Source: Acidimicrobiia bacterium
Lineage (GTDB): Bacteria > Actinomycetota > Acidimicrobiia > Spongiisociales > ZC4RG35
Length of the DNA stretch: 64,000 bases
Assembly (NCBI GenBank): GCA_035550735.1
Contig: DASZOM010000033.1
Location: 17,444-81,443 of the forward strand
Reading direction: 5' to 3'
In this document: positions 38,264 to 48,782 of the stretch, piece by piece
Numbering within the stretch: the first letter of the stretch is position 1
Layout of the letters: each line of letters opens with the position of its first letter
Program-made: the position numbers and the translations under genes
The notes under the pieces: model-generated
What the model saw: the letters and a program-made list of their open reading frames with translations, nothing else
Databases searched by the model: none
Told to the model about the DNA's origin: nothing

Positions 38264-39157
38264 GTGACTGACCCACCGAGCGCCCCATTCGGGTTGCTGG
38301 CCACCGCAATGGTGACCCCCTTCGACTCCACCGGGGCCGTCGACTACCAGAAGAGCCGCGACCTGGCCAGGCATCTCGTCGCCAACGGATCCGACACTCT
38401 GGTTGTTGCCGGCACCACCGGCGAGTCACCGACCCTCGACGAGACCGAGAAGCTGGCACTGTTCAAGACGGTGGTCGAAGCCGTCGAGGGCAAGAAGGCG
38501 AAGGTCGTCGCCGGAACCGGCACCTACGACACCGCCCACTCCGTCGAGATGAGCCGAAAAGCGATGGAGCTCGGTGTCGACGGTGTGCTCGCAGTCACCC
38601 CCTACTACAACCGGCCCAGCCAGCAGGGCCTCGTCGCCCATTTCAAGGCGATCGCCGACGTCGGCGCCCCGGTCATGCTCTACAACATCCCGGGTCGGAC
38701 CAGCCGGCGCATCGAGGTGGAGACACTGGCCATCCTGGCCGGGCATCCCAACATCGTCGCGGTCAAGGACGCCGTCGAGAACCTCGAGTTCACGTCGGCC
38801 TCGATCAACGTCGCTCCGAGCCTCGCCGTCTACTCCGGTCAGGACAGCCTCACCCTGCCGATGATGGCGGTGGGTGCGGTGGGTGTGGTCTCGGTGGTCT
38901 CACATCTCGCCGGGCCGACGGTGAAGGCCATGCTCAAGGCGGCCGAGGCCGGCGACTACGAGGAGGCGCGTCGTCTCCATCACGTTCTCCTTCCTCTCTG
39001 CCAGGCCTGCTTCCTCGAGCCCAACCCGTCCCCTGTCAAGCGGGCCCTGGGCGAGCTGTGGGAGCCGGTCGGTGATGTCAGGCTGCCCCTGGTGGCTGCC
39101 GGCGACGACACCATGGCCGCCGTCGAGAAGGCGATGGGGGCGATCACGCCCTCGTGA
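38264..39157 (+). CDS. dapA: 4-hydroxy-tetrahydrodipicolinate synthase
   Basis: It has the DapA family pattern (TPFDSTGAVD, GTTGESPTL, catalytic Lys in VAVKDA). Confidence 0.9.
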   Translation: MTDPPSAPFGLLATAMVTPFDSTGAVDYQKSRDLARHLVANGSDTLVVAGTTGESPTLDETEKLALFKTVVEAVEGKKAKVVAGTGTYDTAHSVEMSRKAMELGVDGVLAVTPYYNRPSQQGLVAHFKAIADVGAPVMLYNIPGRTSRRIEVETLAILAGHPNIVAVKDAVENLEFTSASINVAPSLAVYSGQDSLTLPMMAVGAVGVVSVVSHLAGPTVKAMLKAAEAGDYEEARRLHHVLLPLCQACFLEPNPSPVKRALGELWEPVGDVRLPLVAAGDDTMAAVEKAMGAITPS

Positions 39158-40788
39158 GCGTCTCGGTCACATTTCTCGGAGGGCTCGGCGAGATCGGGCG
39201 CAACTGCGCCGCCCTCGAAGTCGACGGGAAGATCGCCCTGATCGACGTCGGGCTGATGTTCCCCGAGGAGGACATGCTCGGTGTCGATCTGGTCTTCCCC
39301 GACTGGTCATGGCTGGTGGAGCGGCGCAAGGACGTGGCCATGGTCGTCCTCACCCATGCCCACGAGGATCACGTCGGGGCGCTCGGCTACTTCCTCCGTG
39401 ATCTCCAGGTCCCCGTCTACGGGACCGAGCTCACGGTGGAGATGGCGAGGGGAAGGGTCGACGAGCTTCGGGTCGAGGCCGAGTTCCGCAAGGTCGACCA
39501 GAAGAGGTGGACCTCGCACGGGCCGTTCAAATTCATGCTCATCCCGGTGAGCCACTCCATCCCCGACGCCTCGGCGGTCGCCTTCGACACTCCCGAGGGT
39601 GTTGTGCTCCATTCGGGCGACTTCAAGCTCGATCCCACGCCGATCGATCTCCGGCCCACCGACCTGCCCGCTCTCGCCTCCCTGGGTGAGCGTGGCGTGC
39701 GGCTGCTTCTCTCCGACTCGACCAACGCCGAGCGACCCGGGTTCGTGCCCTCGGAGAGCTCGGTCGGGCGGCCAATCGCCGATGTGATCAGAGACGCCCC
39801 GGGCCGGGTGATCGCCGCCTGCTTCTCGTCCCACGTCCATCGGGTCCAGCAGATCGCCAACGCCGGAGTCACCGCCGGGCGCAAGATCGCGTTCTTCGGC
39901 CGGTCGATGCACAGAACCACCACGATCGCCAACGATCTCGGCTATCTCGACCTGCCCAAGGACGCGGTGATCGACATCAAGGAGCTGGGCTCCCAGCCCG
40001 AGCAGAGACAGCTCCTCATCACCACCGGCTCGCAAGGGGAGCCATTCGCCGCTCTCTCGCTGATCTCCCAGGGACGGCACAAGTTCGTCGATCTGGAAGA
40101 GAGCGACACCGTCCTCATCTCCGCCCAGCCGATACCGGGCAACGAGACCGCGGTCTCCAAGGTGATCTCCAACCTGATGCGACGTGGGGCCACGGTGATC
40201 CACGGCCGCAACTCCCCGATCCACGTCTCCGGTCACGGGGCCAGGGAGGAATTGCTGACTTTCATCAACCTGGTGCGGCCGACCGCTTTCGTCCCGGTGC
40301 ACGGCGAGTACCGGCACCTGGCGGCGCACGCCGACCTCGCCCGGGCGATGGGAGTCCCCCATGTCGATGTGCTCGAGGACGGGGATCGCGTCACCCTCGA
40401 CGGCGACAGGACCTTCGTGGAGCGGCGGGCGGTGCCCGCCGGGTACGTCTACCTGGACGGCTCGTCGGTGGGGGACGTGCAGAGCGCGGTTCTCCGCGAC
40501 CGCTCCCATCTCGCCGATGAGGGGGTGGTGGTGGTGACGGTGGGGATCGACCATGACACCGGGGAGATCGCCTACGGGCCCGACATGGACAGCCACGGGC
40601 TCATGGACGACCCCAGAACCGTCCTGGAGAAGGCCGGCGAGGCGGTGCGGACCGCTATCCAGTCCCACGAGACCGGTCGCACCGATCACTCCGAGCTGCA
40701 GAAGACGGTCCGCCAGGCCGCCGGAAAGGTCATCCGCGACGAGACGTCGCGTCGCCCGGTGATCATCCCGGTGATCATGGAGGTCTGA
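39154..40788 (+). CDS. rnj: Ribonuclease J (metallo-beta-lactamase/beta-CASP)
   Basis: It has HAHEDHVGA (HxHxDH) and a beta-CASP region. The GTG start overlaps the dapA stop (GTGA). The dapA-rnj adjacency is conserved in Actinobacteria. Confidence 0.9.
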   Translation: MSVSVTFLGGLGEIGRNCAALEVDGKIALIDVGLMFPEEDMLGVDLVFPDWSWLVERRKDVAMVVLTHAHEDHVGALGYFLRDLQVPVYGTELTVEMARGRVDELRVEAEFRKVDQKRWTSHGPFKFMLIPVSHSIPDASAVAFDTPEGVVLHSGDFKLDPTPIDLRPTDLPALASLGERGVRLLLSDSTNAERPGFVPSESSVGRPIADVIRDAPGRVIAACFSSHVHRVQQIANAGVTAGRKIAFFGRSMHRTTTIANDLGYLDLPKDAVIDIKELGSQPEQRQLLITTGSQGEPFAALSLISQGRHKFVDLEESDTVLISAQPIPGNETAVSKVISNLMRRGATVIHGRNSPIHVSGHGAREELLTFINLVRPTAFVPVHGEYRHLAAHADLARAMGVPHVDVLEDGDRVTLDGDRTFVERRAVPAGYVYLDGSSVGDVQSAVLRDRSHLADEGVVVVTVGIDHDTGEIAYGPDMDSHGLMDDPRTVLEKAGEAVRTAIQSHETGRTDHSELQKTVRQAAGKVIRDETSRRPVIIPVIMEV

Positions 40789-40869: not shown

Positions 40870-43164
40870 ATGCCAACCCGGACATCCACCCGCAAGGGCT
40901 CCGGGCGGAGACGGGTGTCCACGAAGCAGAAGACGAGGCCGAAGAGGTCTCGAAACAGATCGCTCACCGCGTCACTGGCGTCGATGCGCGCCGCGGTGAG
41001 AAACACCCTGGGGCGTCAGACCGACGACGTCTGGGGTGTGATCCTCCTCGTTCTCTCCATGCTGGTGACCCTGGCCTTCTTCGATCTCGCCGGGCCGGTG
41101 GGCGACGGGTTCGAGTCGGGATCGAGGCTCCTCTTCGGGGTATGGCGCTTCGCGGTCCCGATAGCCCTCGCCGGCATCGGCATCGGGATGATCGTGGGCA
41201 AGCCGCGTGACGGTGCCCGCAAGCTGGTCGTCGGCGGTGTGGCCACCTTCGTCGGCACACTCGCCCTCTTCCACCTTCTTACCGGAGCGGTCGCGCTCCG
41301 ACCCAGCATCGAACTGGTGCAGGAGCGGGGTGGGGCGGTCGGCTCGTTGATCGCATTCCCACTTCGCCGCATCCTCGGACACTGGGGCGCTTTCGTCGTT
41401 CTCTCCTCCTCGATAGGGATGGGAGTCCTGGTGGTGACCGGTACCTCGGTTCGGGAGCTGTTCACGGGGATCGTCGATCTCTGGCGCGGGCTTCGCAGGA
41501 TGGCGCGTGAGGTCTTTGCCGGCGATCCCGATCGACGGGGCGCACACGTCGCGCCACGGCCCGCGCCGATCGTCGAGCAGAAGCCAAGGGGCAAGCACGC
41601 CAAGCCGGACGAGCAGCGCCCGCCCAAGGACCAGCCGGCCAAGCGTGTGGTGAAGCCGCGACCGGATCCGGTCGCCGTGACCCTGGACCTGACGACCCCC
41701 GAGTACCAACTCCCTCCACTTTCCCTGCTCGACGGTGGAACCGGGGGAGAGGTGAACAAGCGGTCGTTGGAGGACACGGCACGCCAGCTCGAGGACACAC
41801 TGCTCCAGCACGGGGTCGACGCCACTTTGACCAAGATCGTCCCCGGGCCGACCGTCACCCGATACGAGATCGAGCTCGCTCCCGGGGTCAAGGTCAACAG
41901 GGTGTCCAACCTCTCCCACGACATCGCCTACGCCCTGGCCACGCCCGACGTCAGGCTCCTGGTACCCATCCCGGGGAAGTCGGCGATCGGCGTGGAGGTG
42001 CCCAATGTCAAGCGCCGCCTCGTCTCCCTCGGTGACATCCTCTCCAGCCCGGAGGCGGCCCGACCGGCGCATCCGCTCACCGTGGGCCTGGGAATGGACA
42101 TCTCAGGCCAGCCCCGGCTCCTCAACCTGGCCGAGCTGCCCCATGTCCTCATCGCCGGAGCCACCGGGGCAGGGAAGTCGTCCTGCATCAACTCGATCGT
42201 GACCTCGCTGCTGATGCGCACCCACCCCGACGACGTCCGGGTGATCATGGTCGACCCGAAACGTGTCGAGCTGGGCCAGTACAACGGGGTGCCGCATCTG
42301 CTGACACGGGTGATCACCAACCCGAAGAAGGCAAACGAGGCGCTGAAGTGGGCCGTGGCCGAGATGGACCGCCGCTACGACCTCCTCGCCGAGGCCAGGG
42401 TCCGTGACATCGAGGGCTATCGGGACAAGCTCGACGCCGGCGGTCTCGATCCCGAGGGCTTCGACCGCTTCCCCTACATCGTCGTGGTGATCGACGAGCT
42501 CAACGACCTGATGATGGTGGCGGGCAAGGAGGTCGAGGAATCGATCGTTCGCATCGCCCAGATGGCACGAGCGGTGGGCATCCACCTGGTCATCGCCACC
42601 CAGAGGCCCTCGGTGGACGTGATCACCGGCGTGATCAAGGCAAACGTGCCGAGCCGTCTCGCCTTCAGTGTCGCCTCCCAGACCGACAGCCGGGTGATAA
42701 TCGACGGCGCCGGCGCCGAGAAGCTGGTGGGCATGGGCGACATGCTGGTGGTGACCGCCAAGGAGCCGCGGCCCCAGCGGATACAGGGGGCTTGGGTGAG
42801 GGAGACCGAGGTGCATGCCGTGGTCGAGTGGGTCAGGGCGCAGAGAGAGGCCCAGTACCAGGACCAGCAGGTGCTCGAGGTCGCTGCCGCGGCGGCAGCC
42901 GCTTCCGCCGCCGCCGAGGAGGAGGACGACGTCGACACCGAGCTGGTCCGTCAGGCGATGGAGCTGGTGGTCCGGTCCCAGCTCGGCTCCACCTCGATGC
43001 TGCAGCGAAAGCTCCGAATCGGCTTCGCCCGGGCAGGCCGGGTGATGGATGCCCTGGAGCGCCAGGGCGTGGTCGGCCCTTCGCTGGGAAGCAAGGCACG
43101 GGACGTCTTGATGACCGTCGAGGAGCTCGAAGGTGTCATGGAGACGGAGTCGGCCCCGGTCTGA
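40870..43164 (+). CDS. ftsK: DNA translocase FtsK/SpoIIIE
   Basis: It has a basic N-terminus, 4 TM helices, a Pro/Lys-rich linker, an AAA+ motor domain (GATGAGKS) and a C-terminal gamma (winged-helix) domain. Confidence 0.9.
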   Translation: MPTRTSTRKGSGRRRVSTKQKTRPKRSRNRSLTASLASMRAAVRNTLGRQTDDVWGVILLVLSMLVTLAFFDLAGPVGDGFESGSRLLFGVWRFAVPIALAGIGIGMIVGKPRDGARKLVVGGVATFVGTLALFHLLTGAVALRPSIELVQERGGAVGSLIAFPLRRILGHWGAFVVLSSSIGMGVLVVTGTSVRELFTGIVDLWRGLRRMAREVFAGDPDRRGAHVAPRPAPIVEQKPRGKHAKPDEQRPPKDQPAKRVVKPRPDPVAVTLDLTTPEYQLPPLSLLDGGTGGEVNKRSLEDTARQLEDTLLQHGVDATLTKIVPGPTVTRYEIELAPGVKVNRVSNLSHDIAYALATPDVRLLVPIPGKSAIGVEVPNVKRRLVSLGDILSSPEAARPAHPLTVGLGMDISGQPRLLNLAELPHVLIAGATGAGKSSCINSIVTSLLMRTHPDDVRVIMVDPKRVELGQYNGVPHLLTRVITNPKKANEALKWAVAEMDRRYDLLAEARVRDIEGYRDKLDAGGLDPEGFDRFPYIVVVIDELNDLMMVAGKEVEESIVRIAQMARAVGIHLVIATQRPSVDVITGVIKANVPSRLAFSVASQTDSRVIIDGAGAEKLVGMGDMLVVTAKEPRPQRIQGAWVRETEVHAVVEWVRAQREAQYQDQQVLEVAAAAAAASAAAEEEDDVDTELVRQAMELVVRSQLGSTSMLQRKLRIGFARAGRVMDALERQGVVGPSLGSKARDVLMTVEELEGVMETESAPV

Positions 43165-43190
43165 TGGGCCGATTCGGAATGGTCGGCCCA
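43165..43190 (+). terminator. Stem-loop immediately after ftsK stop (putative terminator/RNA end structure)
   Basis: It is an 8-bp stem (TGGGCCGA / TCGGCCCA) with a 10-nt loop, starting 1 nt after the ftsK TGA. There is no clear U-tract. Confidence 0.3.
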
Positions 43191-43228
43191 GGTCTAAGCT
43201 CGCCCGGGTTCGTCTCTAGTTCCACGAG

Positions 43229-44374
43229 GTGTTTGGCGTGAGCTCACGCAGGTCAGGGCTTGGTCGCGGGCTCGATGCATTGATCCCCACGGCTTCGGGC
43301 GAGGCAACGCTGTCGGTGATCGGGCAGACTTCGGGTGATGATTCGATGTTCTCGCTGATCAACCCGGACGGCTCGGTCCGCGATCGCCTTCCCCTGACCC
43401 TCGACGAGATGAAGGCGCTCTATGCCGACATGGTTGAGGCGCGCACCTACGACGACAAGTCGATGGCGATGCAACGCCAGGGCCGGCTCGCCACCTACGC
43501 CCCGTTCCGGGGCCAGGAGGCGGCGCAGATCGGGGCCGCCGCCGCCCTGGCCGAGGACGATTGGGTGGCGGCCACCTACCGGGACGCCGCGCTCAACTGG
43601 CGTGCCGGCTATCCCTGGGAGCTGCTGATCCTGGGTCGCACCGGGGACGAGAGGGGTGGCCAGGTTCCGGAAGGGGTCAACATCCTCCCGCCCTCGATCA
43701 CGGTGGGCGGCCACATGATCCACGCCGTCGGTCTCTCCTGGGCCGAGAAGCTGTCAGGCTCCGACCGCATCGCCCTCACCTCCTTCGGCGATGGGGCCAC
43801 CTCCGAGGGAGATTTCCACGAGGCGATGAACTTCGCCTCCGTCTACCGGACACCGACGGTGTTCCTGTGTCAGAACAACGGCTACGCCATCTCCTACCCG
43901 ACCTCGGAACAGACCCGGTCGGACACGATCGCGGTCAAGGCGGACGCCTACGGGATGCCTGGGATCCGCGTCGACGGCAACGACGTGGTTGCCGTGCTCG
44001 TGGCGGTGCGCGAGGCGGTGTCCCTGGCGCGCGCCGGCGACGGGCCGAGTCTCATCGAGGCGGTCACCTATCGGATGGGCCCGCACACGACGGCCGACGA
44101 CCCGGACCGCTATAGGGACGGGAGCGATGTGACGGTGTGGGCGGAAAGGGATCCCCTGGAGAGAGTGCGCCTCCTCCTCGAGCGTCAGGGCGCCTGGGAC
44201 GAGGATTGGCAGACCGAGCTGGAGTCTGAGGCGTCGGAGACCATCGAGGCCGCGGTTGCCTGGGCCGAGTCGGTGCCTCCTCCGACCTTCGCCGAGATGC
44301 TCAACCGGGTCTACGCCCAACCCAGCCCCGCGTTGCGGGAGCACCTGGAGACGGGAGAGCCGAGTCAGATGTGA
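43229..44374 (+). CDS. pdhA: 2-oxoacid (pyruvate/branched-chain) dehydrogenase E1 component alpha subunit, with in-frame ParB-like N-terminal peptide
   Basis: The TPP-dependent E1 alpha core starts around MFSLINPDGS (ATG 43346). The ORF is open from GTG 43229/43238. It encodes SSRRSGLGRGLDALIPTASGEA, which matches actinobacterial ParB N-termini. Confidence 0.85.
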   Translation: MFGVSSRRSGLGRGLDALIPTASGEATLSVIGQTSGDDSMFSLINPDGSVRDRLPLTLDEMKALYADMVEARTYDDKSMAMQRQGRLATYAPFRGQEAAQIGAAAALAEDDWVAATYRDAALNWRAGYPWELLILGRTGDERGGQVPEGVNILPPSITVGGHMIHAVGLSWAEKLSGSDRIALTSFGDGATSEGDFHEAMNFASVYRTPTVFLCQNNGYAISYPTSEQTRSDTIAVKADAYGMPGIRVDGNDVVAVLVAVREAVSLARAGDGPSLIEAVTYRMGPHTTADDPDRYRDGSDVTVWAERDPLERVRLLLERQGAWDEDWQTELESEASETIEAAVAWAESVPPPTFAEMLNRVYAQPSPALREHLETGEPSQM

Positions 44375-44424
44375 GCAGATGTTGACCTACAGCGTCCAAA
44401 TTTGCACAAACCTCGGGGATCGGC

Positions 44425-45402
44425 ATGCCTGAGGTAAACCTCGCCCAGGCGATCAACGGGGCGTTGGACACCGCGTTGCGCAACGACCCGCGCGTGGTCC
44501 TGCTCGGCGAGGACATCGGTCGGGCCGGTGGTGTCTTCCGCATCACCGACGGGCTCAGGGCGAGTCACGGGCCCGATCGAGTCTTCGACACCCCGGTCGC
44601 CGAGTCCGGCATCGTCGGCGCAGCCTTCGGGATGGCGGTCGCAGGGATGCATCCGATAGCCGAGCTGCAGTTCCTCGGCTTCTCCTATCCCGCCTACGAC
44701 CAGATCATCAATCACGTCGCCCGGATCAGGAACCGCACCAACCACCGCTTCAGCGCGCCGATGGTCATCCGGATCCCCTACGGAGGGGGGATCGGGGCGG
44801 CGGAGCATCATTCCGAGTCGACCGAGGCGATATATGCCCACATCCCCGGGATCAAGGTCGTGGTCCCCTCCACGCCCGCGGATGCCCGGGGCCTGCTGCT
44901 CGCCGCCGTGGAGGACCCCGACCCGGTGATCTTCCTGGAGCCGATTCGCCTCTACCGCGCCATCAGGGAAGACGTGCCCGAAGCAGTCGATCGGGTGGAG
45001 ATCGGGCCGGTTCGCGTGGAGAGGTCTGGAGACGACATCACCCTGATCAGCTGGGGGGCGATGATGAAAGAGACTCGTGCCGCGGCCGGCGCCTTGGCCG
45101 AGGACGGCTACTCGGTCGAGGTGATAGACGTGCGGACCCTGGCCCCCCTCGATCGTGACGGGATCGTGGCGTCGGTGGAGAAGACTGGGCGGGCGGTGAT
45201 CATCCACGAGGCACCGCTCACCGGTGGGTTCGGGGGCGAGATCGCCGCGACCATCACCGAGCGAGCGCTCTACTCGCTGCTCGCACCGATCAAGCGGGTC
45301 ACCGGGTGGGACACGGTCTTCCCGTTGAAGCGCTCCGAGGCCCACTACCTTCCCTCGGTGGACCGAATCGTCTCTGCTGCGCACGAGACCCTGGAGGTTT
45401 GA
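44425..45402 (+). CDS. pdhB: 2-oxoacid dehydrogenase E1 component beta subunit
   Basis: It has a transketolase-like pyrimidine-binding domain and C-terminal domain. Confidence 0.9.
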   Translation: MPEVNLAQAINGALDTALRNDPRVVLLGEDIGRAGGVFRITDGLRASHGPDRVFDTPVAESGIVGAAFGMAVAGMHPIAELQFLGFSYPAYDQIINHVARIRNRTNHRFSAPMVIRIPYGGGIGAAEHHSESTEAIYAHIPGIKVVVPSTPADARGLLLAAVEDPDPVIFLEPIRLYRAIREDVPEAVDRVEIGPVRVERSGDDITLISWGAMMKETRAAAGALAEDGYSVEVIDVRTLAPLDRDGIVASVEKTGRAVIIHEAPLTGGFGGEIAATITERALYSLLAPIKRVTGWDTVFPLKRSEAHYLPSVDRIVSAAHETLEV

Positions 45403-46713
45403 GTGACCCGCGAGTTCCGGCTTCCCGACATCGGTGAGGGCCTCACCGAAGCCGAGATCGTTCGCTGGCTGGTCCCGGTCGGAGAGCGGGTGGAGACGGA
45501 CCAGCCCATCGTCGAGGTGGAGACGGACAAGGCCGTGGTCGAGATCCCGTCTCCGTTCGCAGGGATCGTCCTGTCCCATGGTGGCGCCGAGGGCGAGATC
45601 GTCCGGGTCGGTCAGGTGCTGGTCACCATCGGGGACGAAGGAGAGCGACCGACACCGCCACCCGAGCCGTCCCCGGTCGCCGTCTCCCAGCGGGAAGCCC
45701 CCCCGATCGTCGGCACCCTCAGTGACGAGGCGGAAGTCCTCACCCCGGGCGTCAGCGATGTCCCGTCGAGCCCGGTCGTCCAGGCGCTTCCCCTGGTGCG
45801 CAAGCTGGCGCGTGATCACGACATCGATCTGAGCACGATCGCGGGAACAGGTCCCGGCGGTCGGATCACCCGTGAGGACGTGGAGGCTGCGATCGAGGCG
45901 GCTTCGGGCCGGCCCCACCGGGAGGAGGCGGTGGAGGGGATGCCGGTCGGCGCCGGTCACGGTGTCGGCGACGACCTGGAGGAGCCGGAGACCGTGCCAT
46001 CAGCGACGACCACACCGGTCGGCGGCAAGCGGGAGGAGGAGCGCCGCCCGATGAGCCGTCTCCGCCGCACGATCGCTGCGAACATGGTGAAGAGCTGGTC
46101 GGAGATCCCCCACGTCACCAGTTTCGACGAGGTCGACGCCACCCGTCTCCTCGAGGTGCGCCGGGCTCTCGGCGACCGCCACGGGCTGAGCATCCCGGTC
46201 GAGGCGCTGGTCATCAAGGCGGTGATCCCGGCAATCGACGAGTTCCCGGAGCTCAACGCGACGGTCGACGGGGACGATCTCGTCCTCCACGGGGCCCGCG
46301 ACATCGGAATCGCCGTGGACACCCCGGAGGGTCTCCTGGTGGCGGTGGTCAGGGAGGCCGGTTCGAAGAGTGTGCTCGAGCTTGCCTCCGAGATCCGACG
46401 TCTCGGTGAAGGAGCCCGGGAGCGCAGCCTCGGTCCCGATGAGCTCACCGGCCAGACCTTCACCGTCACCAACATAGGGGCCGTGGGGGGCGGACACGGG
46501 ACACCCATCGTCCCCCACGGGACGACGGCCATCCTCTCGGTGGGTCGCGCCCGGTTGCGCCCGGTCGTGTTCGGAGAGGATCTCGGCATCGCCCCGGTGA
46601 TGCCGCTGTCGCTGTCTTACGACCATCGGGTGATCGACGGGGCGGTGGGTAGGCGGTTCATGGCGCTGGTGATCGAGAACCTCGATGAGCCGGCTCTCTT
46701 CCTGGCGGTGTGA
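45403..46713 (+). CDS. pdhC: Dihydrolipoamide acyltransferase E2 (lipoyl domain + E3-binding domain + catalytic domain)
   Basis: It has a lipoyl-Lys motif (ETDKA), a PSBD (PLVRKLARDHDIDL), and a catalytic DHRVIDG motif. Confidence 0.9.
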   Translation: MTREFRLPDIGEGLTEAEIVRWLVPVGERVETDQPIVEVETDKAVVEIPSPFAGIVLSHGGAEGEIVRVGQVLVTIGDEGERPTPPPEPSPVAVSQREAPPIVGTLSDEAEVLTPGVSDVPSSPVVQALPLVRKLARDHDIDLSTIAGTGPGGRITREDVEAAIEAASGRPHREEAVEGMPVGAGHGVGDDLEEPETVPSATTTPVGGKREEERRPMSRLRRTIAANMVKSWSEIPHVTSFDEVDATRLLEVRRALGDRHGLSIPVEALVIKAVIPAIDEFPELNATVDGDDLVLHGARDIGIAVDTPEGLLVAVVREAGSKSVLELASEIRRLGEGARERSLGPDELTGQTFTVTNIGAVGGGHGTPIVPHGTTAILSVGRARLRPVVFGEDLGIAPVMPLSLSYDHRVIDGAVGRRFMALVIENLDEPALFLAV

Positions 46714-47279
46714 TGCCACACGTCCACGTCGTCCCCTACGACGAGTCGGCGGGAGTGGTCCGTGAGGAGTACGACGCCGCCATCGCCCGCGCCGGCCGCA
46801 TCTGGAACATCGTCTCGATCCAGAGCATGCAGCCTGAGGTGCTGCGGGACTCGATGCGGATCTACCGCACGATCATGCACGGGCCTTCTCCGCTGAGCCG
46901 AGCGCAACGGGAGATGATGGCCGTCATCACCTCCCAGGCCAACGACTGTCACTACTGAATAGCTGCGCATCTGCACGACCTCCGTGCCGAGGTTGCCGAC
47001 GGGACCATCGCAGATCGCATCGCGGAGGATTGGCGCACCGCAGGGCTGTCACCCGTGGACCTCGCACTCTGTGAGTATGCCGAGACGCTGACCCGGTCCC
47101 CTTCATCGGTGGACGCCACCGTCATCGAGGGCCTCCGCGCCGTCGGTCTCGACGACGTGGGGATCTCCAGCGCCACTCAGGTGATCGCCTACTTCAACTA
47201 CATCAACCGGATCGCCGAGGGGCTCGGTGTGCCCATGGAGAGCTGGCTCCATGACGACGGGACGCCCCGGGAGCCCTAG
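46710..47279 (+). CDS. AhpD-core/CMD-family peroxidase-related protein with in-frame TGA in the CxxC motif (selenocysteine candidate; otherwise pseudogene)
   Basis: The GTG/ATG start overlaps the E2 stop (GTGATG). The frame reads ...SQANDCHY-TGA(46956-46958)-IAAHLHDLRAEV... and continues open to TAG at 47279 (189 codons). The TGA sits where AhpD-like proteins have the second Cys of N.C.YC...H. Confidence 0.5.
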
Positions 47280-47288
47280 CCTGCCCCC

Positions 47289-48782
47289 ATGGCCAAGGAC
47301 CCCGAGAAGCAGGCAGGCAAGAAGAAGGACAAGGCCAAGCCCAAGGCCGAGATGCCCGAGGTGAAGGATCGCAAGGCGTCGAGACAGTTCACCGGGAAGT
47401 TCGGCCGCAAACAGGTCTCCTACACCGCCACGGCCGCCACACAGGTCTTCGACGTAGGTGACGACAAGGTCTCGTTCTTCTACGTCTCCTACACCCAGGA
47501 CGACGCAGATCCGGCGTCTCGTCCGGTGATGTTCTGCTTCAACGGAGGCCCGGGCTCGTCGACCGTGTGGCTCAACCTCGGCTTGTTCGGCCCGAAGCGG
47601 ATGATGTTCGACGATCAAGGATTCAAGGTCGGGATGCAGGGGAAACTGGTCGACAACGACCAGTCGATCCTCGATGTCTCCGATGTGGTCTGCATCGACG
47701 CCATGGGGACGGGGCTGAGCCGGACTGCCAAGAAGGGCAAGGAGAAGAGGTTCCACCACTTCAAGAAGGACATCGAGGCCTTCAGCGAGTTCATCGTCCA
47801 CTACCTCAACCGCAACGGACGATGGTCGTCTCCCAAGTACCTGGCCGGTGAGAGCTACGGGACCCTGCGCGGAGCGGGGATAGCCCGGGAGCTGTTCGAC
47901 AAGCACCACGTCGAGCTGAACGGGGTCATCTTCATCTCGATGATCCTCAACTACCAGACCTCTGCGATCGACCGGACCAACATGCTGGTCCACGCCGGGA
48001 ACGACCTCCCGTTCGCCGTCTACCTGCCCACGTACGCCGCCACGGCCTGGTATCACAAGCGTCTCCCCAAGAAGAACCAGTCGAAGTCACTGCGAGCCTT
48101 TCTCGACGAGGTCGAGGAGTTCGCGCTGGGGGGCTATTGGACCGCACTCGCCCAGGGAGACCGGCTCGACGCCAAGCAGAGGGCTGCCATCGCCGGCAAG
48201 CTCGCCGATTACACCGGTCTCAGCGCCGAGTTCATCGACCTCTACAACCTGCGCATCCACATCATGAGGTTCTGCAAGGAGCTGATGCGGGAGAAGCGGC
48301 GCACGGTGGGGAGGATCGACTCGCGTTACCTCGGCATCGACCGGGACATGGCCGGCAACAACCTCGAGATCGACCCGAGCACCGACGCCTTCTCCGGGGT
48401 GGCGGCCTCGGCGCTCAACCACTACCTGCGTGACGAGATCGGGTTCGAGACCGAGGACGTCTACAACATCATGTCGTCGGACGTCTGGAAGAACTGGGAC
48501 TACGAGGATTTCAAGGGCCGGTACGTCGACACGTCGGAGAACTTCCGGGAGCTGTTGTCGAGGTCGAGGGGGACCAAGGTGCTCATCGCCAACGGCTACT
48601 ACGACCTGGCCACGCCGCACTTCGCCACCGAGTACACCATGTCCCACATGGGCCTCGACCCCGACGTGCGACCCAACATCCGGCTCACCTACTACGAAGC
48701 GGGGCACATGATGTACGTGCACAAGGCATCGCGGGAGCAGCTGGCCACCGACCTCAGGGAGTTCGTCCAGCAGACCTCTTAG
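47289..48782 (+). CDS. S10-family serine carboxypeptidase-like protein with Lys-rich N-terminus
   Basis: It has GGPGSSTVW and the GESYG nucleophile motif of the S10 family. The N-terminal 50 aa are K/E-rich low complexity. Confidence 0.7.
   Translation: MAKDPEKQAGKKKDKAKPKAEMPEVKDRKASRQFTGKFGRKQVSYTATAATQVFDVGDDKVSFFYVSYTQDDADPASRPVMFCFNGGPGSSTVWLNLGLFGPKRMMFDDQGFKVGMQGKLVDNDQSILDVSDVVCIDAMGTGLSRTAKKGKEKRFHHFKKDIEAFSEFIVHYLNRNGRWSSPKYLAGESYGTLRGAGIARELFDKHHVELNGVIFISMILNYQTSAIDRTNMLVHAGNDLPFAVYLPTYAATAWYHKRLPKKNQSKSLRAFLDEVEEFALGGYWTALAQGDRLDAKQRAAIAGKLADYTGLSAEFIDLYNLRIHIMRFCKELMREKRRTVGRIDSRYLGIDRDMAGNNLEIDPSTDAFSGVAASALNHYLRDEIGFETEDVYNIMSSDVWKNWDYEDFKGRYVDTSENFRELLSRSRGTKVLIANGYYDLATPHFATEYTMSHMGLDPDVRPNIRLTYYEAGHMMYVHKASREQLATDLREFVQQTS

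Follow-up and report, generated by a model that had tools for sequence, protein, structure and literature searches.

The 64,000-nt stretch of DNA analyzed here (the window; G+C content 67%) comes from an Acidimicrobiia bacterium (GCA_035550735.1, contig DASZOM010000033.1, positions 17,444-81,443, forward strand) and carries an operon for the E1α, E1β and E2 subunits of a 2-oxoacid dehydrogenase. Comparison of the sequences of related loci showed that pdhA, which encodes pyruvate dehydrogenase (PDH) E1α, is translated in this lineage from a GTG codon at 43238, with a predicted disordered extension before the canonical enzyme. The extension has 36 residues, an 18-residue tag (MSSRRSGLGRGLDALIPT) followed by a variable linker of about 18 residues. 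Alignments showed that residues 1-18 are a position-for-position copy of the ParA-binding peptide of the chromosomal ParB of this class. This suggests that the PDH complex is tethered to, or in contact with, the chromosome-segregation machinery. The reading that we favor, with modest confidence, is that the tag binds ParA and that the PDH complex is tethered to the nucleoid and distributed in a ParA-dependent manner. A full-text search of the open-access literature found no report of a ParB-like peptide on pyruvate dehydrogenase.

Downstream of the TAG at 43217-43219 the E1α reading frame is open, with the sequence FHEVFGVSSRRSGLGRGLDALIPTASGEATLSVIGQTSGDDS-MFSLINPDGS (the part upstream of MFSLINPDGS is also written ...VSSRRSGLGRGLDALIPTASGEATLSVIGQTSGDDS) and an ATG at 43346. 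A preliminary description of this DNA had reported an in-frame ParB-like peptide upstream of that ATG, and the peptide was found there. The same description had left the start between GTG 43229 and GTG 43238 and had counted 39 codons. In the window, a Shine-Dalgarno (SD) sequence precedes GTG 43238. Scans of GTDB species genomes and JGI metagenomes yielded 44 distinct tagged DNA loci, and in all 44 the start codon aligned with GTG 43238 (GTG in 35, TTG in 9) and had an SD before it, so the extension is 36 codons long and not 39. GTG 43229 falls within the SD sequence GAGGTG (43226-43231), and only 43238 was retained. AAGGAG(A) was present 5-9 nt before the tag start in most of the 44 loci, and the mean predicted anti-SD duplex energy at the tag start was -7.6 kcal/mol versus -4.4 kcal/mol for the in-gene background. 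Proteins P0001-P0003 were also begun by gene callers at the position of GTG 43238. Upstream of the SD, the tagged loci had a TA[AT]GCTCGC box, always 34-44 nt before the tag start; TAAGCT was exact in 33 of the 44 loci, and TATGCT was found in most of the others. A simple sigma-70 consensus scan did not call this box in the window (43195-43203).

The full open reading frame (ORF) was searched against 5.8 billion proteins, and the matches were E1α proteins of Acidimicrobiia. About 85 of the 120 best matches began M/V/L-SSRKSGLGRGLDALIPT, which was followed by a variable stretch of about 18 residues and then by MFGLINPDGSVRDRLP. In several of these 120 proteins the position of Met37, encoded by ATG 43346, was occupied by I, T, L, V or P. 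At the DNA level, the Met37 codon of the tagged loci was ATG in 35, GTG in three, TTG in one, ATT in two, ATA in one and ACG in one, so that four tagged loci had a codon that is not a start codon (ATT, ATA or ACG) at the old start. An ATG, GTG or TTG was thus kept at the ancestral start in 39 of the 44 loci, which is one point for the idea that two isoforms are made, a tagged one from GTG 43238 and an untagged one from ATG 43346, with only a fraction of E1 being tagged. The mean SD energy before Met37 was also lower than background (-5.9 versus -4.4 kcal/mol; Wilcoxon P = 0.007, uncorrected for phylogeny). However, many loci had no SD at Met37 (values of 0.3 to -2.6 kcal/mol), so the signal was weak and inconsistent, and Met-Phe was also a conserved internal pair in distant E1α proteins (L070-L072), whose N-terminal extensions are different. 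With the promoter box now placed before the tag, the old leaderless route is gone. We consider a second, untagged isoform unlikely; such an isoform is compatible with ParA binding by the tag and not opposed to it.

Selection on the extension was analyzed with the Nei-Gojobori ratio of nonsynonymous to synonymous differences per site (pN/pS). The ratio was 0.08 for GLGRGLxALIP, 0.14 for tag codons 2-17 and 0.22 for codons 1-40 of the enzyme core, while synonymous divergence was similar across motif, tag and core (pS 0.51-0.55). By this measure purifying selection acts more strongly on the tag than on the N-terminal region of the enzyme itself. The silent sites drift and the peptide is held fixed; therefore, a non-coding or RNA element and a neutral relic were excluded. 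The preliminary description had offered a relic of a parB 5' fragment as an alternative, but this is contradicted by the purifying selection across the clade and by the conserved start codon and SD. That about 35 of the 120 best protein matches were annotated from an internal Met might speak for such a relic, or for an untranslated annotation artefact. However, the pN/pS of 0.08 was found at saturated synonymous divergence, some loci had no internal start codon, the tag persisted while the E1α core diverged by more than 25%, and the tag recurred in a second E1α lineage (see below), so that the probability left to a relic or artefact is negligible. At least two proteins annotated from an internal ATG, P0069 (a record of an NCBI metagenome-assembled genome (MAG), on the contig of L004) and P0094 (on the contig of L086), had the GTG, the SD and the full tag in frame upstream. 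Their starts were chosen by annotation, and therefore the tag is under-reported in protein databases; pipelines that choose the internal Met conceal it.

Two other candidates in this region were rejected. For an RNA or DNA element, there was no Rfam match (E up to 1) and no consensus promoter or terminator, and the synonymous sites varied freely. A conserved out-of-frame ATG before Met37 (43338-43340) was present in all of the first nine loci, but among the 44 loci the position was often GAC-G.

The structure of the extension was predicted with AlphaFold2. With a 64-sequence alignment (pTM, the predicted TM-score, 0.78), residues 1-35 had a predicted local distance difference test score (pLDDT) below 50 and no secondary structure, and on this model residues 1-35 are disordered; from the single sequence the mean pLDDT was 37 and the model was unusable. 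A tryptic peptide across tag and linker would be GLDALIPTGDASGAVAR for the L001 type. Within the linker, Gln30 (usually in R-Q-T) was near-invariant, and an acidic/Gly patch (DDG, DEG or NDG) preceded Met37.

Likeness of the tag to the ParB N-terminus

In a six-frame translation of the window, this site had the only instance of G[LIVM]G[RK]G[LIVM] with xALIP after it. The single tag peptide was compared with all PDB sequences, and the sole match was residues 1-20 of Thermus thermophilus Spo0J. A tag profile was then compared with 177,635 PDB sequences. The best match was again T. thermophilus Spo0J (E 6.4e-5, residues 1-18 to residues 1-18), the second was Caulobacter crescentus ParB (residue 1 to residue 1), whose E of 0.22 is not significant alone, and nothing beyond ParB/Spo0J N-termini was matched. 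An hhalign comparison of the E1α tags with 22 Acidimicrobiia ParB N-termini aligned them N-terminus to N-terminus with a probability of 98.1% and an E of 7.8e-14. The similarity of the extension to ParB is, by these alignments, far beyond chance, as had been claimed from the window sequence in the preliminary description.

The tags and the ParB N-termini were also compared position by position. The 119 ParB proteins of Acidimicrobiia began M-[TS]-x-R-[RK]-[GAS]-GLGRGL-[ED]-[AS]-LIP-[TSA], and the 80 E1α tags read M-S-S-R-K-[SP]-GLGRGL-[DE]-A-LIP-T, with the same length and register. The GLGRGL..LIP core and R4 were invariant in all 80 proteins, and R4, G7, L8, G9, R10, G11, L12, L15, I16 and P17 were invariant in a 55-sequence alignment (A2). 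Basic residues at tag positions 4 and 5 (R4, K/R5) and R10 were conserved, as in ParB. In Myxococcus xanthus ParB, the ParA-binding motif comprises residues 11-19, of which L11, R13, L15, L18 and I19 are required, and a peptide of residues 1-20 activates ParA given DNA, full activation needing two juxtaposed peptides (PMC12462528). The equivalents of the M. xanthus ParA-contact residues (L8, R10, L12, L15 and I16) were invariant in all 80 E1α tags, and the N-terminal motif for ParA binding, L-G-[RK]-G-L-x-A-L-[IL], was present within the first 20 or so residues as LGRGLDALI.

When 1.84 billion cluster representatives were searched with a profile, 156 matches were obtained at E up to 0.001. Among the 150 matches listed, six were E1α and at least 58 were ParB, with a PNPxQPR box following; 54 were unclassifiable short N-terminal fragments, nine were translated repeats and a handful were unknowns. 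The tagged protein was without the ParB domains (PF02195, helix-turn-helix (HTH) and C-terminal dimerisation domains), as Pfam gave only E1_dh and related thiamine pyrophosphate (TPP)-enzyme domains for it, whereas the true Acidimicrobiia ParB had PF02195, PF17762 and PF23552. Judged by its domains, the tagged protein is not a ParB, and the peptide alone is common to the two. The E1α tag and the ParB/Spo0J peptide (T. thermophilus Spo0J residues 1-20, PDB 1VZ0 sequence; M. xanthus ParB residues 11-19) share the extreme N-terminal place, the register and the length (M-x-x-R-[RK]-x-GLGRGL-[DE]-[AS]-LIP), as well as the five ParA-contact residues, the disorder and the flexible linker. In contrast, the E1α tag is carried by a thiamine-diphosphate enzyme and not by a ParB/Srx CTPase with HTH and dimerisation domains. 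The tagged E1α has no parS binding and no CTP clamp, and pairing of its tags would come from the α2β2 enzyme and the E2 scaffold.

The peptide might bind a partner other than ParA, or might be an amphipathic membrane or assembly helix, the likeness to ParB then reflecting a shared origin and not a shared partner. LGRGLDALI is indeed amphipathic, and the peptide is also found on a few other proteins (P0176, P0177/P0178, P0201 and P0263; see below). However, as in ParB, there was no variation in the five residues that contact ParA, in the basic character of positions 4 and 5 or in the register, and the sole documented role of the peptide is ParA binding and activation (PMC12462528), so that we regard a non-ParA partner as rather improbable. 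A twin-arginine translocation (Tat) signal was excluded, because most tags have R-K and not R-R, followed by the charged residues R and D: a Tat signal has S/T-R-R-x-F-L-K and an uncharged hydrophobic region, whereas K5 was present in 63 of the 80 tags and GLGRGLDALIP holds R and D. A membrane helix was rejected on sequence grounds.

Other carriers and history of the tag

The same tag, M/L-AARRGGLGRGLEALIPT, was carried by a second lineage of Acidimicrobiia E1α, which shares 47% identity with the E1α of the window; there the tag had a TTG start and an SD of its own. The linker of this lineage was different (TGNSEHHKKRA, about 11 residues), and the gene context was E1α-E1β-LOG, without ftsK or an adjacent E2. 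The lineage was represented by loci L161 (8001-9127) and L163 (8001-9090) and by proteins P0188, P0271, P0272, P0278 and P0298; both L161 and L163 are long-read contigs with frameshifts within the E1α gene. Close relatives of this lineage began MGRFETLRIID and were untagged. The same peptide is joined to the same enzyme at two different junctions, which argues for selection on this combination.

Besides ParB and E1α, a few other proteins (P0176, P0177/P0178, P0201 and P0263) bore the peptide. One of these is a 64-residue protein with the tag and a SEC-C zinc motif (CPCGSGRKFKHCHG), and others have a coiled-coil-like tail. NCBIfam gave nothing for P0176, P0177, P0178 and P0201, and the contigs of P0177 and P0201, shorter than 2 kb, gave no gene context.

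In a neighbour-joining tree of the E1α cores, all tagged genes fell in one clade, with a few untagged members nested. MAGs with the tag include CAVVSY01 (MFD02840.bin.2.66, 2.07-Mb contig), DATKCE01, JBBDML01 and DASTOM01. Sister clades, with 72-80% core identity, had stop codons 1-10 codons before the Met and no tag. The preliminary description had held that orthologues all starting at the MFSLINP methionine would argue against the tag. Untagged MF starts were found, but only outside the tagged clade, and inside the clade the tag was conserved. Many sister loci had a TAAGCT, TAGGCT or TACTTT box that ended 9-11 nt before the ATG, with no SD after it, and their sequences suggest that the untagged pdhA mRNA is leaderless or near-leaderless. 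The simplest reading of these sequences is a single insertion, at the base of the clade, of a module of about 140 nt (leader, SD, start codon, tag and linker) after the promoter box and ahead of the ancestral start codon, with a few losses after that. Because the synonymous sites were saturated, the module could not be traced to parB at the DNA level. An origin of the module from a parA-parB junction was rejected, as the upstream 'FKLA...HKEKG' is the promoter box and SD read as codons. The TAAGCTCGC box itself preceded pdhA in tagged and untagged Acidimicrobiia (the window; L010, L013, L015, L016, L146-L152 and others).

Several loci had a changed tag or none. In L008 (5927-6019), the Ile-Pro codons had lost 1 nt, which put the tag in a separate 27-codon ORF (VSSRRSGLGRGLGALISRRPKRQRAPQ*), and E1α began from MLGLINLDG; the frameshift may be an error of MAG assembly or may reflect tag decay. 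In L009, L129 and L133, the region upstream of E1α was replaced to mid-linker (...STIRHTSADEASTVF) and the tag was gone, while their sisters L111, L115 and L119 retained the variant tag L[AV][KT]RK[TA]GLGRGLE[AT]LLP[IV]. The old start position was GTG (Val) in all six of these loci. The tag was degenerate in L155 and absent from L012.

ParA as candidate partner

ParA/MinD ATPases position DNA, carboxysomes, chemoreceptor arrays, flagella and the divisome, each via a partner with an N-terminal peptide. In the mechanism that we propose, the tag would dock in the hydrophobic pocket at the interface of the DNA-bound ParA-ATP dimer and stimulate its ATPase, as the ParB peptide does, and the partner would be chromosomal ParA/Soj or another ParA-family ATPase. 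E1α is by homology a component of an E1-E2-E3 complex, and this enzyme class assembles as an α2β2 heterotetramer. Each α2β2 E1 would show two tags on linkers of about 18 residues, and with many E1 copies on the E2 core the tags of the assembled complex would be paired and multivalent. Such an arrangement would give the pairing and avidity that ParB gets by clamp closure (PMC12462528). The tagged complex may be likened to a ParB-parS partition complex or to a McdB-coated carboxysome, and a diffusion ratchet of the usual kind would distribute or partition the PDH complex over the nucleoid. The tag would incidentally become a competitor of ParB for ParA.

The recruitment of a ParA/MinD ATPase to a cargo by an N-terminal partner peptide is established, and a synthetic 'luggage tag' has been proposed (PMC10241942). 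In the ParA/MinD partners McdB (with carboxysomes), PomX and ParP, a short, basic, disordered N-terminal peptide likewise links a large assembly to a ParA-type ATPase. However, those systems have a dedicated ATPase, usually beside a dedicated adaptor with its own peptide, whereas in E1α the cargo enzyme itself bears the peptide, the peptide is copied from ParB, and the scanned loci had no ATPase gene nearby. It is conceivable, though we hold it with some doubt, that the PDH complex is a genuine ParA cargo, carried by the gradient of ParA on the nucleoid and so spaced and inherited like a plasmid or carboxysome without an adaptor or ATPase of its own. In Bacillus subtilis, PDH E1α is located over the nucleoid and has an effect on the assembly of the Z-ring (PMC4030479). 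There the same subunit is tied to nucleoid and cell cycle, but it has no ParB-like peptide and belongs to another phylum; by analogy it is a precedent for the biology and not for the mechanism.

Several points weigh against ParA-dependent tethering. First, no deviant Walker A motif (KGGxGK[ST]) was present in any frame of the 64-kb window or of 80 GTDB loci with 6-kb flanks, a scan that left out 80 metagenome loci (3-kb flanks). The orphan ParA/MinD-family ATPase for which the preliminary description had proposed to look was thus not present in the window or these 80 GTDB loci. The canonical gidB-parA-parB operon is present in the class, and, with no ParA-like gene near pdhA in the scanned loci, the chromosomal ParA is therefore the default candidate. 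Second, all data are from MAGs and metagenomes, and translation was read from sequence conservation. Third, competition with ParB for ParA might be costly. Fourth, the sampled ParB proteins, a class-wide Acidimicrobiia set not taken from tag-carrying genomes, prefer R5, G6 and E13, while the tags prefer K5, S/P6 and D13; this difference could be a clade effect or a difference in specificity. Fifth, the tag is dispensable, because it was lost in several lineages (L009/L129/L133, L155, L012 and perhaps L008).

That metabolism and the cell cycle are linked is an old observation, but the links are poorly explained mechanistically. The tag could serve to regulate ParA and not to position the complex: E1α, soluble or bound in the complex, would titrate or stimulate ParA in competition with ParB. 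Chromosome segregation, the control of replication or the timing of division would in this way depend on pyruvate metabolism or on how much of the complex is present. Such a role would rest on the same evidence as the tethering reading (selection, invariant residues and the hhalign result). However, there was no sign that exposure of the tag follows metabolic state, B. subtilis E1α is untagged, and E1α proteins of the 1W85 type align only from residue 37. The gene order dapA-rnj-ftsK-E1α-E1β-E2-CMD-peptidase, in which CMD is a carboxymuconolactone-decarboxylase gene, was common to tagged and untagged Acidimicrobiia, so the ftsK-pdhA synteny is not tied to the tag. The adjacency of ftsK, which the preliminary description had mentioned as a hint, is for the same reason not tag-specific. 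Regulation of ParA in place of positioning seems to us unlikely, if somewhat less so than a partner other than ParA.

If ParA-dependent tethering is true, the list of ParA/MinD cargoes would be widened to a core metabolic complex, and a short leader-plus-tag module placed before an existing gene would be a route of cargo recruitment. Central carbon metabolism and chromosome segregation would be in direct competition or directly coupled. Active partitioning would also have been shown for a central-metabolic enzyme complex for the first time, and the PDH complex would be a natural case of cargo recruitment by ParB-peptide mimicry.

Operon and gene order

The features of the pdhA region are collected in Table 1. 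The E1α protein scored 426.4 bits against TIGR03181 (cut-off 411.35), with residues 37-371 aligned to profile positions 2-339 of 341, and its nearest solved structure was PDH E1α of Geobacillus stearothermophilus (1W85). The homology to TIGR03181 and to PDB 1W85 started in both cases at residue 37. Compared with heterotetrameric E1α (TIGR03181; 1W85), residues 37-371 align over the full length and the E1α-E1β-E2 operon is typical, but residues 1-36 of the window E1α have no counterpart. The partner genes expected of the operon, E1β and a lipoylated E2, were both present with the expected domains, those of E2 being a lipoyl domain, an E1/E3-binding domain and the catalytic core.

Table 1. Coordinates of the pdhA region in the window
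Feature	Position	Strand	Remarks
dapA	38264-39157		
RNase J (rnj)	39154-40788		
ftsK	40870-43164		
Promoter-like -10 element (TANNNT type), conserved box TAAGCTCGC	43195..43203	+	35 nt before the tag start codon; putative function
Shine-Dalgarno sequence GAGGTG of the tag start codon	43226..43231	+	
E1α-E1β-E2 operon, 2-oxoacid dehydrogenase	43238-46713		
GTG start codon of long (tagged) E1α	43238..43240	+	Aligned start column of 44 distinct loci
ParB-type N-terminal tag, residues 1-18, (M)SSRRSGLGRGLDALIPT	43238..43291	+	
Core ParA-binding motif LGRGLDALI, residues 8-16	43259..43285	+	Counterpart of residues 11-19 in M. xanthus ParB
Flexible linker, residues 19-36 (ASGEATLSVIGQTSGDDS)	43292..43345	+	Varies in length and sequence among homologues
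Ancestral start codon, now internal Met37	43346..43348	+	Start of untagged sister-clade orthologues
Pyruvate dehydrogenase E1α, catalytic part	43346..44374	+	Pfam E1_dh (PF00676), E 1.4e-80; entire tagged ORF 43238-44374
E1β	44425..45402	+	Pfam Transket_pyr, Transketolase_C; NCBIfam PDH E1β under cut-off
E2 dihydrolipoamide acyltransferase	45403..46713	+	Pfam Biotin_lipoyl, E3_binding, 2-oxoacid_dh

An inverted repeat, GGGCCGA-N10-TCGGCCC (43166-43189), began directly past the ftsK stop codon; it had no T-run and was not called by the terminator scan. A conserved gene of about 497 residues (47289-48782), for a putative peptidase, lay 3' of the CMD gene. The CMD gene itself (46710-46958) is a small CMD/AhpD-like gene that overlapped the stop codon of E2 and was syntenic in most related loci.

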